Shown: positions 1,791 through 20,487, counted from the stretch's first letter. The stretch: DNA of 64,000 nt from Escherichia coli (GCF_024298765.1 NZ_CP101210.1); one strand, 5' to 3'. Translations and numbers: made by a program. Notes: generated from the sequence alone by a model not told the origin.

Positions 1791-2495
1791 TTATTTTTTA
1801 GAGTAATCACGCGCACCAAAAATTGCAGTGCCGATACGAACCATCGTGCTACCTGCCGCAATGGCGGCTTCCATATCGTCCGACATTCCCAGAGAGAGCG
1901 TGTCGATATGCGGGTAGCGTGTTTTCAGTCCGGCAAATGCTACAGCCATTTGGCGTGCAACTTCAAACTGCCTTACATATTCTGACTCAGGTGCAGGGAT
2001 TGCCATCAGCCCGCGCAGACGTAAACGCGGTAGTTCAGCGACCGCAGCTGCCAGCTCGTCCAGTTCAGCCAGTTGAATCCCGGACTTACTGTTTTCATCA
2101 CTAATATTAATTTGAATCAGTACGTTAAGAGGGGGAAGTTCTGCCGGGCGCTGATCGTTGAGGCGGGTAGCAATGCGCAAACGGTCGATGGTATGACACC
2201 AGTCGAAATGCTCTGCCACCAGGCGGCTTTTATTAGACTGCAACGGGCCAATAAAATGCCATTCTAATCCTGTTACGCCCAGTTCCTGAAAGTGGCGAAT
2301 TTTATCTACCCCTTCCTGAACGTAGTTTTCACCAAATTGACGCTGCCCGGCATCAATGGCTTCTGCGATGGCGCTCGCAGGTTTTGTTTTACTGACTGCA
2401 AGCAGCGTAATTTCTTCTGGAGAACGGCCGCAACGCGTTGCAGCCGCTGAGATTTTGTCCCGGACCTGTGCCAGGTTATGCGCAATATCGTTCAT
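1791..2495 (-). CDS. yggS: PLP-homeostasis protein YggS (234 aa)
   Basis: ORF 1791..2495; translation MNDIAHNLAQVRDKI...LAVSKTKP matches recalled YggS. Confidence 0.9.
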   Translation of the reverse strand: MNDIAHNLAQVRDKISAAATRCGRSPEEITLLAVSKTKPASAIAEAIDAGQRQFGENYVQEGVDKIRHFQELGVTGLEWHFIGPLQSNKSRLVAEHFDWCHTIDRLRIATRLNDQRPAELPPLNVLIQINISDENSKSGIQLAELDELAAAVAELPRLRLRGLMAIPAPESEYVRQFEVARQMAVAFAGLKTRYPHIDTLSLGMSDDMEAAIAAGSTMVRIGTAIFGARDYSKK

Positions 2496-2512
2496 TTTCC
2501 GAGGATCTTAGT

Positions 2513-3493
2513 ATGAATATGGAAGAAATTGTGGCCCTTAGTGTAAAGCATAACGTCTCGGATCTACACCTGTGCAGCGCCTGGCCCGCACGATGGCGTA
2601 TTCGCGGGCGAATGGAAGCTGCGCCGTTTGATGCGCCGGACGTCGAAGAGCTACTGCGGGAGTGGCTGGATGACGATCAGCGGGCAATATTGCTGGAGAA
2701 TGGTCAGCTGGATTTTGCCGTGTCGCTGGCGGAAAACCAGCGATTGCGTGGCAGTGCGTTCGCGCAACGGCAAGGCATTTCGCTGGCGTTACGGCTGTTA
2801 CCTTCGCACTGCCCGCAGCTCGAACAGCTTGGCGCACCAGCGGTATTGCCGGAATTACTCAAGAGCGAGAATGGCCTGATTCTGGTGACGGGGGCGACGG
2901 GGAGTGGCAAATCTACCACGCTGGCGGCGATGGTTGGCTATCTCAATCAACATGCCGATGCGCATATTCTGACGCTGGAAGATCCTGTCGAATATCTCTA
3001 TGCAAGCCAGCGATGTTTGATCCAGCAGCGGGAAATCGGTTTGCATTGTATGACGTTCGCATCGGGATTGCGGGCTGCATTGCGGGAAGATCCTGATGTG
3101 ATTTTGCTCGGAGAGCTGCGTGACAGCGAGACAATCCGTCTGGCGCTGACGGCGGCAGAAACCGGGCATTTGGTGCTGGCAACATTACATACGCGTGGTG
3201 CGGCGCAGGCAGTTGAGCGACTGGTAGATTCATTTCCGGCGCAGGAAAAAGATCCCGTGCGTAATCAACTGGCAGGTAGTTTACGGGCGGTGTTGTCACA
3301 AAAGCTGGAAGTGGATAAACAGGAAGGACGCGTGGCGTTGTTTGAATTGCTGATTAACACACCCGCGGTGGGGAATTTGATTCGTGAAGGGAAAACCCAC
3401 CAGTTACCGCATGTTATTCAAACCGGGCAGCAGGTGGGGATGATAACGTTTCAGCAGAGTTATCAGCAGCGGGTGAAAGAAGGGCGCTTGTGA
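2513..3493 (+). CDS. yggR: PilT-like type IV pilus retraction ATPase homologue YggR (326 aa)
   Basis: ORF 2438..3493 trimmed to MNMEEIVALSV; Walker A GATGSGKST present; divergent from yggS. Confidence 0.85.
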   Translation: MNMEEIVALSVKHNVSDLHLCSAWPARWRIRGRMEAAPFDAPDVEELLREWLDDDQRAILLENGQLDFAVSLAENQRLRGSAFAQRQGISLALRLLPSHCPQLEQLGAPAVLPELLKSENGLILVTGATGSGKSTTLAAMVGYLNQHADAHILTLEDPVEYLYASQRCLIQQREIGLHCMTFASGLRAALREDPDVILLGELRDSETIRLALTAAETGHLVLATLHTRGAAQAVERLVDSFPAQEKDPVRNQLAGSLRAVLSQKLEVDKQEGRVALFELLINTPAVGNLIREGKTHQLPHVIQTGQQVGMITFQQSYQQRVKEGRL

Positions 3494-16443: not shown

Positions 16444-16720
16444 GTTTTCTCTTCCGCACAAGGTCAGGATTATTCTAAAAATGCGCCGTTTGCAGGTGAA
16501 TCGACGCTCAGTCTCAGTATAAGGAAAAGCGCAGCGGACGGGCGAGCAGATTGCGCAACATGCGAGCATGATCCAGAGATTTCTGAAGCGGCAAAAGGAT
16601 GTTCCATGTACATGACGCGCGGCTTGCGGTAAATTGTTGGCAAATTTTCCGGCGTAGCCCAAAACGCGCTGTCGTCAAGTCGTTAAGGGCGTGCCCTTCA
16701 TCATCCGATCTGGAGTCAAA

Positions 16721-18712
16721 ATGTCCTCACGTAAAGAGCTTGCCAATGCTATTCGTGCGCTGAGCATGGACGCAGTACAGAAAGCCAAATCCGGTCACCC
16801 GGGTGCCCCTATGGGTATGGCTGACATTGCCGAAGTCCTGTGGCGTGATTTCCTGAAACACAACCCGCAGAATCCGTCCTGGGCTGACCGTGACCGCTTC
16901 GTGCTGTCCAACGGCCACGGCTCCATGCTGATCTACAGCCTGCTGCACCTCACCGGTTACGATCTGCCGATGGAAGAACTGAAAAACTTCCGTCAGCTGC
17001 ACTCTAAAACTCCGGGCCACCCGGAAGTGGGTTACACCGCTGGCGTGGAAACCACTACAGGTCCGCTGGGTCAGGGTATTGCCAACGCAGTCGGTATGGC
17101 GATTGCAGAAAAAACGCTGGCGGCGCAGTTTAACCGTCCGGGCCACGACATCGTCGACCACTACACCTACGCCTTCATGGGCGACGGCTGCATGATGGAA
17201 GGCATCTCCCACGAAGTTTGTTCTCTGGCGGGTACGCTGAAGCTGGGTAAACTGATTGCGTTCTACGATGACAACGGTATCTCTATCGATGGTCACGTTG
17301 AAGGCTGGTTCACCGACGACACCGCAATGCGTTTCGAAGCTTACGGCTGGCACGTTATTCGCGGCATCGACGGTCATGACGCGGCATCCATCAAACGCGC
17401 AGTAGAAGAAGCGCGCGCAGTGACTGACAAACCGTCCCTGCTGATGTGCAAAACCATCATCGGTTTCGGTTCCCCGAACAAAGCCGGTACGCACGACTCC
17501 CACGGTGCGCCGCTGGGCGACGCTGAAATTGCCCTGACCCGCGAACAGCTGGGCTGGAAATATGCACCGTTCGAAATCCCGTCTGAAATCTATGCTCAGT
17601 GGGATGCGAAAGAAGCAGGCCAGGCGAAAGAATCCGCATGGAACGAGAAATTCGCTGCTTACGCGAAAGCTTATCCGCAGGAAGCCGCTGAATTTACCCG
17701 CCGTATGAAAGGCGAAATGCCGTCTGACTTCGACGCCAAAGCGAAAGAGTTCATCGCTAAACTGCAGGCTAACCCGGCGAAAATCGCCAGCCGTAAAGCG
17801 TCTCAGAATGCGATTGAAGCGTTCGGCCCGCTGTTGCCGGAATTCCTCGGCGGCTCTGCTGACCTGGCACCGTCTAACCTGACCCTGTGGTCTGGTTCTA
17901 AAGCAATCAACGAAGATGCTGCGGGTAACTACATCCACTACGGTGTTCGCGAGTTCGGTATGACCGCGATTGCTAACGGTATCTCCCTGCACGGTGGCTT
18001 CCTGCCGTACACCTCCACCTTCCTGATGTTCGTGGAATACGCACGTAACGCCGTACGTATGGCTGCGCTGATGAAACAGCGTCAGGTGATGGTTTACACC
18101 CACGACTCCATCGGTCTGGGCGAAGATGGCCCGACTCACCAGCCGGTTGAGCAGGTCGCTTCACTGCGCGTGACCCCGAACATGTCCACATGGCGTCCGT
18201 GTGACCAGGTTGAATCCGCGGTCGCGTGGAAATACGGCGTTGAGCGTCAGGACGGCCCGACTGCGCTTATCCTCTCCCGTCAGAACCTGGCGCAGCAGGA
18301 ACGTACTGAAGAGCAGCTGGCAAACATCGCGCGCGGTGGTTATGTGCTGAAAGACTGTGCCGGTCAGCCGGAACTGATCTTCATCGCGACCGGTTCTGAA
18401 GTTGAACTGGCGGTTGCTGCCTACGAAAAACTGACTGCTGAAGGCGTGAAAGCGCGCGTGGTTTCCATGCCGTCTACCGACGCGTTCGACAAGCAGGATG
18501 CGGCTTACCGTGAGTCTGTACTGCCGAAAGCGGTTACTGCACGCGTTGCGGTGGAAGCGGGTATTGCTGACTACTGGTACAAGTATGTTGGCCTGAACGG
18601 TGCTATCGTCGGCATGACCACCTTCGGTGAATCTGCTCCGGCAGAGCTGCTGTTTGAAGAGTTCGGCTTCACCGTTGACAACGTTGTTGCGAAAGCGAAA
18701 GCGCTGCTGTAA
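16721..18712 (+). CDS. tktA: Transketolase 1 TktA (663 aa)
   Basis: ORF 16691..18712 trimmed to [19 protein letters not shown]. Confidence 0.95.
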
Positions 18713-18734
18713 TCGGTAAGATGCTTTGTGAGAA

Positions 18735-18759
18735 GGGCCGCGAAAGCGGCCCTTTTTTT
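18735..18759 (+). terminator. Rho-independent terminator of tktA
   Basis: gggccgcgaaagcggccc followed by ttttttt; the T-run overlaps the stop codon of the convergent SPFH gene. Confidence 0.65.
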
Positions 18760-19666
18760 ACTTAGTAGAGATAAACGGAACTGTACTGCCGGGGATCATG
18801 GTATCGGGTAGCTTACCGTCCCAACGCTCAGCAGTGGTGAGGGCAACAAGTCCGGGATTATCCCGCAGAGCTTCACCGCGCAGGCGGATCGCTTCTGCTT
18901 CAGCCGCACTTTTTAAACGAATAGTTTCAGCCTCTGCCGCGCCTCTTACGCGAATAGTCTCAGCTTCTGCTTTGGCTGCCGCCAGTTTACTGTCTGCTTC
19001 AGCCTGGGCCTGAGTTACTGCTATTTGCGCCTGGATTTTCTCTGTTTCCAGATTTTGCTTACGTGTGGCAATGGCGACTTCTGCTTTCATTCGATCTTCA
19101 ATCGATTTTTCATAAGCGTCAGAAAAATCAATATTTTCAATCTGGACACCATCAATCACCACCGGGCCAACAACGGCTTTACGCATTGCATTTTGCAGAT
19201 CCTGAACCAGTTTTGTACGATCCTGTACCGCGCTGATGGCGGTATATTGGCCGAAAACGTTCTCCAGTTGAGTTGGCAGCTGGCGGACGATCAGACGCTC
19301 TTTTAAAGATTCAATGGTGTTGTAGGTTGTATAAACTGCGCCAGCTTCTGAAGGTTTAATGTGGAAGCTGACTGATACTGTCATTTGTGCCGGTTGCTGG
19401 TCGCGGCTGTAGGCCTGTAATCCCTGATAAACCACAGCCTGATTACGCGTGGAAATTTTCTCCACGCTTTCCATAAAAGGGATCTTAAAACCCAGACCCG
19501 GCTCGGCAACTTTTACGATTTTTCCGTAGCGCAGCAAAATGCCGCGTTCACCTTCATTAACGGTGTAATACGAGAGAAATGGCAGCACAACCACGGCAAG
19601 CACGCCAATGACGATAGCAATAGATTTTTGTGGGCGAAATGAGGTTATTGAAACAGGTGCTTTCAT
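18758..19666 (-). CDS. SPFH/band-7 (prohibitin/HflC-like) membrane protein with C-terminal repeat-containing coiled coil (302 aa); candidate accessory gene
   Basis: ORF 18758..19666 with SD aaggaag 7 nt upstream; N-terminal TM helix (IAIVIGVLAVVVLPF) followed by an SPFH-like region; C-terminal AEAETIRVRGA/AEAETIRLKSA/AEAEAIRLRGE repeats. Confidence 0.8.
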   Translation of the reverse strand: MKAPVSITSFRPQKSIAIVIGVLAVVVLPFLSYYTVNEGERGILLRYGKIVKVAEPGLGFKIPFMESVEKISTRNQAVVYQGLQAYSRDQQPAQMTVSVSFHIKPSEAGAVYTTYNTIESLKERLIVRQLPTQLENVFGQYTAISAVQDRTKLVQDLQNAMRKAVVGPVVIDGVQIENIDFSDAYEKSIEDRMKAEVAIATRKQNLETEKIQAQIAVTQAQAEADSKLAAAKAEAETIRVRGAAEAETIRLKSAAEAEAIRLRGEALRDNPGLVALTTAERWDGKLPDTMIPGSTVPFISTK

Positions 19667-20043
19667 GACAATCTTCCTTGAGTAAAGTGTGGGAATATGT
19701 CACATGAGGTGAGGAGAAAACAGCCTACAGGTGAGAATTCAGAATCTATAAAGGGGTATAGCGAAAAAACATTGCATTAAAAAAGTATGTTTTCGGACAT
19801 TCAATAAATAAATGGCGATATGTATCACAAATACAACAACAATCAAAATGTTGATTTTGTGATAAACATAACAAATACAAAGTTGACTTTAAAAATATCA
19901 ATTTCATTTTGTTGTTATTTAAAGTTTTATTATTTTTGTTCATGGGGTTTTTCTTCTCGCGTACCCAATTGCTTTCATTAAACCGCACGAGTATTTTATT
20001 TTTACCGCCGGACGGTACCCTAAAAATAAAATAAGGATAATTT

Positions 20044-20487
20044 ATGCGGCTTATTGATTATTTTCCAGAATCATCAATCTCAGTTATACATTCAGCAAAA
20101 GATTGGCAGGAAGCTATCGATTTCTCGATGGCATCATTGCTGGATAAAAACTATATCAGCGAGAATTACATTCAGGCAATTAAAGATTCCACCATTAACA
20201 ATGGCCCTTATTATATTCTCGCACCAGGCGTGGCAATGCCTCATGCGCGACCGGAATGTGGGGCGCTTAAAACCGGGATGTCTTTGACATTACTTGAACA
20301 AGGTGTTTATTTTCCGGGGAATGACGAACCAATTAAATTACTCATCGGACTCTCTGCTGCCGATGCCGATTCGCACATTGGCGCTATTCAGGCGTTAAGT
20401 GAATTACTGTGCGAAGAAGAAATACTCGAACAACTCTTAACAGCATCATCAGAAAAACAATTAGCGGACATTATCAGCCGCGGATAA
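20044..20487 (+). CDS. cmtB: Mannitol-type PTS EIIA component CmtB (147 aa)
   Basis: ORF 20044..20487; translation matches recalled CmtB. Confidence 0.85.
   Translation: MRLIDYFPESSISVIHSAKDWQEAIDFSMASLLDKNYISENYIQAIKDSTINNGPYYILAPGVAMPHARPECGALKTGMSLTLLEQGVYFPGNDEPIKLLIGLSAADADSHIGAIQALSELLCEEEILEQLLTASSEKQLADIISRG

Follow-up and report, generated by a model that had tools for sequence, protein, structure and literature searches.

Three 11-residue units in the predicted wall helix of an Escherichia coli SPFH protein: a structural period with one lineage-specific duplication

Within a stretch of 64,000 nucleotides of the E. coli genome (GCF_024298765.1, NZ_CP101210.1; hereafter the window), a minus-strand gene for an SPFH protein contains three consecutive, similar 33-nt units, and the question that they raise is whether they form a DNA repeat whose copy number shifts from strain to strain or instead reflect a property of the protein that they encode. 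The original prediction, made from the sequence alone, leaned toward the former, proposing that slipped-strand or recombinational events could expand or contract the array and so alter the length of a coiled-coil tail. The analysis described here leads to a different conclusion: the repeat is structural and changes on an evolutionary timescale, and it is neither a contingency locus nor a strain-level switch. It is the local form of a structural period that may run through the superfamily, together with one lineage-specific duplication.

The gene and its three units

The gene (18758..19666, minus strand, 302 aa; defined by its ORF, Pfam and RefSeq) encodes an SPFH / Band 7 membrane protein that RefSeq names 'prohibitin family protein', and residues 35-210 match PF01145 (Band_7) with 105.8 bits against a gathering cut-off of 23.6. 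The family includes prohibitins, stomatin, podocin, flotillins and HflK/C. The gene is convergent with tktA (16691..18712, plus strand) and divergent from cmtB/cmtA (from 20044, plus strand). Between tktA and the SPFH gene a putative GC-rich terminator hairpin, GGGCCGC-TTTC-GCGGCCC (18735..18752), can be read directly in the sequence and is probably common to both genes; it is absent from the output of a simple terminator scan. On the strand opposite the SPFH gene there is no Rfam match above E = 0.19, no promoter-like site and no credible gene; an antisense ORF of 71 codons (18798..19013, plus strand), rich in SASAA-like repeats, was rejected as a gene; it arises from the periodic GCN/GAR codons of the helix described below.

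The protein is a fifth SPFH paralogue that K-12 does not possess, and RefSeq annotation places its gene in about 1,830 of 5,426 complete E. coli genomes. The whole gene (interval 18713..20043) is thus a presence/absence polymorphism, and in non-carriers, including K-12 (O16:H48), only about 730 bp span the distance from tktA to cmtB. With roughly two thirds of E. coli lacking it and a pseudogene in some strains, the gene is dispensable. Signs of decay are found in some carriers: the CFT073 allele (1850..2753 of locus L008) is annotated as frameshifted and shows several gaps of 1 nt near codons 200-217, strain 06-00048 (1..679 of L012) has a GAA>TAA stop within the second of the three units, and in strain 2011EL-1370-2 (match H96) an IS1 transposase is annotated inside the tktA-cmtB interval. 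Carriers also differ in the span matched by a query of 18500..20250, which is 1,751 nt in the clade of the window and about 1,912-1,924 nt, in two BLAST pieces, in many others, O25:H4 strains among them; from this difference an indel of about 165 bp can be deduced, and its suspected site is the intergenic stretch that lies upstream of the SPFH gene (19667..20043).

The three units, read on the minus strand, are u0 (AEAETIRVRGA, residues 233-243, 18938..18970), u1 (AEAETIRLKSA, residues 244-254, 18905..18937) and u2 (AEAEAIRLRGE, residues 255-265, 18872..18904), exactly as originally translated. They are preceded by a degenerate module that opens with the same AEA codons, u-1 (AEADSKLAAAK, residues 222-232, 18971..19003, minus strand). 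The array itself was correctly recognized, with a slight offset in its placement, since it was put at 18880..18990 and occupies 18872..18970; the DNA motif cgaatagt(c/t)tcagc(c/t)tctgc that was said to mark the units is present in two of them and absent from the third. The AEAE motif is a known hallmark of SPFH wall helices, and conservation in each unit extends to the charged E2, E4, R7 and K9.

The description as a tandem repeat holds for the protein rather than for the DNA. Pairwise protein identities among u0, u1 and u2 are 73, 73 and 64% (23 of 33 possible identities), and when unit lengths from 5 to 20 are scanned, 11 alone stands out. At the DNA level, only u0 and u1 are alike (79% identity, as compared to 61% for u0/u2 and 55% for u1/u2). 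These two share 26 of 33 nucleotides where 21.0 would be expected from their amino acids and the codon usage of the gene (P=0.005); their differences fall at positions 6, 12, 21, 22, 26, 28 and 30, and no identical run exceeds 8 nt. For u2, similarity to u0 and u1 does not exceed the amino-acid and codon-usage expectation. Tandem Repeats Finder (TRF), run on 18500..19900 with a minimum score of 30, does not report a period-33 array, the units being too degenerate at the DNA level for this tool.

One might ask whether the units share an ancestor at all, or whether they merely reflect an Ala/Glu-rich composition or convergence imposed by helix packing. The lack of excess DNA identity for u2 is what such an explanation predicts, as is the A/E-richness of SPFH wall helices in general, but 20,000 composition-preserving shuffles of the helix reach 15 identities at best as compared to the 23 observed, the codon identity of u0 and u1 is in excess, and syntenic orthologues differ by exactly one whole unit. 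We therefore regard an origin without duplication as extremely unlikely for the repeat as a whole; for the old u1/u2 pair convergence is possible, with no effect on the structural reading. Under that structural reading, u2 is an ancient module conserved across the family, and u0 and u1 are a pair derived from an Escherichia-specific duplication in which either may be the new copy; at the protein level, it is u1 that lies closest to the AEAETIRLKGA unit of relatives with two units.

Copy number between strains and between lineages

The claim that copy number varies between E. coli strains was examined by a census with 113-nt chimeric queries, which cross the junctions predicted for 2-unit and 4-unit alleles that recombination between u0 and u1 would generate. 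Artificial 2- and 4-unit queries of 198 and 264 nt were uninformative, as pieces of the wild type were joined to 100% coverage. The E-value limit for the junction queries was set at 1e-32, given a local BLAST simulation in which true variants scored E<=4e-43 and the wild type 6e-26. Neither the 2-unit nor the 4-unit query had a match in 5,426 complete E. coli genomes, as compared to 1,827 genomes matched by a wild-type control query of the same length under the same limit, and in a spread sample each of the 29 full-length matches is exactly 909 nt long. Strain-level variation, as originally envisaged, is not what these genomes contain. As the repeat is invariant between strains, it is of no use as a typing marker and does not act as a phase-variation switch.

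Beyond this set of complete genomes, rare in-register losses do occur. A 280-aa allele of E. albertii, found in both an NCBI assembly and a Logan run, lacks 66 nt corresponding to u-1 and u0, with the loss lying between 9-nt direct repeats, GGCAGAAGC, and a loss of exactly 33 nt is seen in one metagenomic E. coli scaffold, where the junction joins GCAGAA to GC. Both deletions are flanked by short microhomology of the GCAGAAGC type. The units share no more than 8 identical bases in a row, and for this reason slippage or recombination between them would be rare.

Nor is mutation limited to multiples of 33 nt, as is apparent from two metagenome-assembled E. coli alleles (L017 and L018) with in-frame helix deletions of 12 and 18 nt (4 and 6 aa), both confirmed in the contig DNA; these could be assembly artefacts rather than rare alleles. 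Many singleton E. coli-like proteins from metagenome assemblies, several of them on ENA METAG scaffolds (P0002, P0003, P0006-P0008, P0010, P0017 and P0041), have small in-frame deletions at varied positions in the gene.

The idea of a contingency or VNTR-type locus, in which 33-nt units would slip or recombine often and tune protein length between strains, can be judged against these observations. The in-register losses of 66 nt (in two data sets) and 33 nt (in one scaffold) are what it would predict, and copy number does differ between genera. Against it stand the absence of 2- and 4-unit alleles from the complete genomes, the uniform 909-nt length of the sampled matches, and units too diverged at the DNA level, with identical runs too short and TRF silent, to resemble a hypervariable array. 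For E. coli this idea is largely refuted, and we consider it very unlikely overall.

It is between lineages that the number of units changes, and in this respect the original prediction is supported. Homologues outside Escherichia (57-88% identity), from genera that include Klebsiella, Kluyvera, Kosakonia, Erwinia, Mixta and Salmonella, nearly all have two units, AEAETIRLKGA and AEAEAIRLRGE, whereas three are present in E. coli, Shigella and E. albertii. The locus is syntenic, with tkt as the neighbour in E. albertii, in Kluyvera and in one other Enterobacteriaceae contig, and the syntenic 2-unit orthologues have a single unit of the u0/u1 type. This distribution indicates one in-register 33-nt duplication in an ancestor of Escherichia.

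How the extra unit has been maintained since can be judged from five alleles (the window, CFT073, ETEC1701, strain 06-00048 and E. albertii). From u-1 to u2 their protein sequences are identical except for the stop codon in 06-00048, and all other nucleotide differences are synonymous, which argues that the extra unit is under purifying selection wherever the gene is intact. Gene conversion between units, considered because 06-00048 ranked oddly, was rejected, as the units of that strain are normal apart from the stop.

The 11-residue period of the wall helix

The original prediction placed the units in a coiled-coil tail, yet the region is no free tail: AlphaFold2 (AF2) and Foldseek place it in the distal third of a helix of the cage-wall type. 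The AF2 monomer model of the 302-aa protein, built from a 150-sequence alignment (pLDDT 92.3), begins with a predicted transmembrane helix (residues 12-31, 19574..19633, minus strand, as are the features that follow). K2, R11 and K14 lie ahead of this helix and, by the positive-inside rule, suggest that the N-terminus faces inward and that the body of the protein would be periplasmic, as in HflC; the best NCBIfam stretch of the protein is the HflC N-terminus. The globular SPFH domain follows (residues 33-181, 19124..19570; strands and helices with pLDDT of about 97-98), and then a single unbroken helix of 87 residues (183-269, 18860..19120), which in the model corresponds to CC1, the helix that forms the wall in solved SPFH cages. 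The chain ends (18761..18859) with a turn, a short second helix (residues 272-281) and a C-terminal segment, all assigned from AF2 and conservation. The turn is N269/P270 by sequence, with residues 270-271 non-helical in AF2. The C-terminal segment, ERWDGKLP...VPFIS, is extended in the model, and its W282, G284, L286, P287, P292 and P297 are near-invariant.

In prohibitin, CC1 forms the cage wall and CC2 with the C-terminal domain forms the lid (PMC12478178), and by homology the second helix and C-terminal segment here would belong to a lid region. Given the arrangement of CC1 and lid in solved cages, the three units would then make up the third of the wall helix nearest the lid. When the whole chain is compared with known structures by Foldseek, the best-listed match is HflC (7vhq_G, E=2e-17), and full-length matches also include HflK, PHB1/2 (8rrh), erlin1/2, QmcA (8z5g), stomatin, flotillin and vault; the order of elements seen in AF2 and Foldseek (anchor, SPFH domain, CC1, turn, CC2, C-terminal segment) is that of the superfamily. 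It seems likely from these homologues that the protein would form a closed multimeric cage.

Elsewhere in the SPFH domain, TRF reports a period-21 repeat of 1.9 copies (score 55, 19191..19229) encoding VQDRTKL / VQDLQNA, a 7-residue duplication within the predicted helices H143-148 and H150-164. A second hot spot for small indels lies in an SPFH-domain loop at about 19415..19435 (residues 78-84, VYQGLQA; L006 and L009), where a 305-aa allele of E. albertii has a 9-nt tandem duplication, CAAGGGTTG, that adds an extra QGL and where 18 nt are missing from the metagenomic E. coli scaffold L009.

The claim that the units serve as in-frame length modules of the helical region is upheld across the family by steps of 11 residues. 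Among 132 representatives from an exhaustive HMMER search, no two more than 50% identical, the stretch corresponding to F181-W282 measures 79 aa in 17, 90 aa in 69, 101 aa in 22 and 112 aa in 3, such that 111 of the 132 (84%) fall on a single 11-step series and 16% lie off it. Another 13, at 83, 94 or 105 aa, form an offset series in which each length falls 7 residues below one main-series value and 4 above the preceding one, and most of the remaining eight, with other lengths, have a different loop after Asn-Pro. Indels at many positions along the helix obey the multiple-of-11 rule, and the extra unit does not have the same sequence in all members with three and four units, as in P0097 and P0122, whose units have diverged codons. 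On a neighbour-joining tree of 127 taxa, itself poorly resolved, Fitch parsimony counts 38 changes of 11 aa as compared to 40.8 with shuffled tips.

The same period is found within single sequences. BLOSUM autocorrelation along the helix is highest at lag 11, followed by lag 22, and this holds for the query (z=5.9) as it does for the family mean. In the Fourier analysis, hydropathy power is greatest at a period of 5.5 residues, or 11/2, and has no peak at 3.67 residues, from which two opposite stripes per 11 residues are inferred. Among the K-12 paralogues, QmcA has a lag-11 z of 8.0 and four 11-mers in succession (ILEAEGIRQAE / ILKAEGEKQSQ / ILKAEGERQSA / FLQAEARERSA), HflC has a lag-11 z of 3.7 and YqiK one of 2.9; in HflK, lag 22 is on top and lag 11 is not seen. 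Lag 7 is never significant in the query or in these paralogues. A search of the open-access literature returned no paper pairing hendecads or an 11-residue period with SPFH proteins, flotillin, stomatin or prohibitin, and judged on that basis an explicit 11-residue rule with stepwise lengths may perhaps be stated here for the first time.

Another way to account for conserved, repeated units is that they are docking motifs for a partner such as an FtsH-like protease, an NfeD-type protein or components of the cell wall, so that copy number would set valency rather than height. HflK/C cages do bind FtsH and QmcA binds YbbJ, as seen in PDB entries, and the conservation of four charged residues per unit would suit a binding motif. 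Yet a partner gene, whether nfeD, ftsH or another, does not adjoin the locus in any genome examined, the 11-residue period spans the entire helix and is shared by paralogues with different partners, and the occurrence of multiple-of-11 indels at many helix positions points to a constraint on register rather than on the number of motifs. Docking is, in our judgement, unlikely. A possible functional neighbourhood can be seen in a distant 3-unit environmental relative (P0122, 3952..4910 of L010), where an opposite-strand SH3_3-domain gene and a Gly-zipper_YMGG gene come after the SPFH gene, an arrangement repeated in two independent contigs, L010 and L011.

The explanation that we favour, and hold as a whole to be quite probable, is that the units are 11-residue modules of CC1, that Escherichia gained its third by one 33-nt duplication, and that changes in length are filtered by helix register. 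The host protein would be a solitary, strain-variable inner-membrane protein of the SPFH/prohibitin type, and the units would be consecutive three-turn modules, each about 16.5 Å long (11 x 1.5 Å), in the distal third of its 87-residue CC1. In HflK/C, QmcA, prohibitin, erlin and flotillin the wall helices stand side by side to form the wall of a closed cage, and the same would apply here. On an 11/3 helical wheel, residues L8-A1-A/T5 and I6-G10-A3 would form stripes on opposite sides of the helix, each facing one of two neighbouring helices, with the charged pairs E2/K9 and E4/R7 between them; two opposite stripes of small and apolar residues would suit a helix that touches two neighbours in a single-layer wall.

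As to how the modules arose, the last two units are ancestral and family-wide, and the third stems from an in-register duplication in the common ancestor of E. coli and E. albertii; it is now fixed and under purifying selection. Changes in length may begin by slippage or by microhomology-mediated deletion and duplication at the GCN-GAR-GCN (Ala-Glu-Ala) codons with which units open, and selection on helix register would then retain almost solely those that are multiples of 11 residues. The extra unit should raise the wall by about 16 Å relative to that of other Enterobacteriaceae. A broader proposal, to which we would give a little less than an even chance, is that SPFH wall helices are 11-residue-modular across the superfamily, as seen in this family, QmcA, HflC and YqiK, with cage height set in steps of about 16 Å and Escherichia one step taller; height would then evolve as 33-nt modules, seeded at Ala-Glu-Ala codons, are repeatedly gained and lost.

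The locus itself carries little weight, as the gene is already annotated and E. coli can do without it. What emerges as a by-product is a testable design rule for SPFH cages, that the length of the wall helix changes almost only in steps of 11 residues, and the natural variants with one to four modules are a ready series for asking how the height of a cage affects what it encloses.

Relation to known SPFH cages and hendecad coiled coils

The closest known system is the HflK/HflC cage (7VHP, 7WI3, 9CZ1), which is the best match to the protein in both sequence and structure. The SPFH domain, long CC1 wall helix, turn and short CC2 are common to all three proteins, and the N-terminal transmembrane helix, basic N-terminus and lag-11 periodicity are shared with HflC. 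Nevertheless, an identity as HflC or HflK is ruled out by equivalog scores and operon context: the protein misses the NCBIfam cut-offs for both hflC (TIGR01932, 60.7 vs 134.4 bits) and hflK (TIGR01933, 37.7 vs 159.4 bits), and in contrast to the hflK-hflC pair behind hflX, whose K-12 locus lies elsewhere, the gene stands alone in all of the genomes examined, with tktA and cmtB, or other genes, on either side. The ERWDGKLP...VPFIS motif at its C-terminus is specific to its own subfamily and distinguishes it from HflK/HflC, and we know of no link between the protein and FtsH.

QmcA, a stomatin-like protein solved with YbbJ (8Z5G), has a wall helix with four 11-aa repeats of the same kind of module as found here. 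QmcA differs in its predicted cytoplasmic orientation and in its pairing with the NfeD gene ybbJ: the protein here has an HflC-like N-terminus, and no NfeD gene flanks its locus in the window or in L001-L005 and L010, as compared to the ybbJ-qmcA and yqiJ-yqiK arrangements. Membership in the NfeD-paired flotillin/stomatin type (QmcA-YbbJ, YqiJ-YqiK) is ruled out by the lack of such a neighbour.

A right-handed arrangement of helices requires a sequence period of 11 residues per three turns. For flotillin, a published description (PMC11260169) has the wall forming a right-handed helical barrel that contains (A/G,E,A/G,E) repeats and lacks heptads, and the 11-residue, three-turn period of our protein fits it. 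The protein shares with flotillin (9BQ2) the (A/G)-E-(A/G)-E pattern and the absence of classical heptads, and is likened to it also in having charged residues on both faces and side-by-side helices, the latter expected here from homologous assemblies. The two are set apart by scale, as the flotillin wall helix has 186 residues in a 44-mer and the one here has 87, and by a sequence similarity that is marginal (NCBIfam FloT, E=0.0019). The PHB1/PHB2 cage (8RRH, 9O9Z, 9UNL) is similar in size, in domain order and in the logic of a CC1 wall with a lid of CC2 and C-terminal segments, but it is a hetero-oligomer of two paralogues and its sequence similarity is distant (E of about 1e-5).

Finally, the wall helix has much in common with hendecad coiled coils: periodicity at lag 11, homologue lengths and indels in whole 11-residue steps, and the minor series offset by 7 or 4 residues. 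It would differ from a hendecad bundle with a hydrophobic core in forming, as judged from its homologues, a single-layer wall that is held together largely by small residues and salt bridges.
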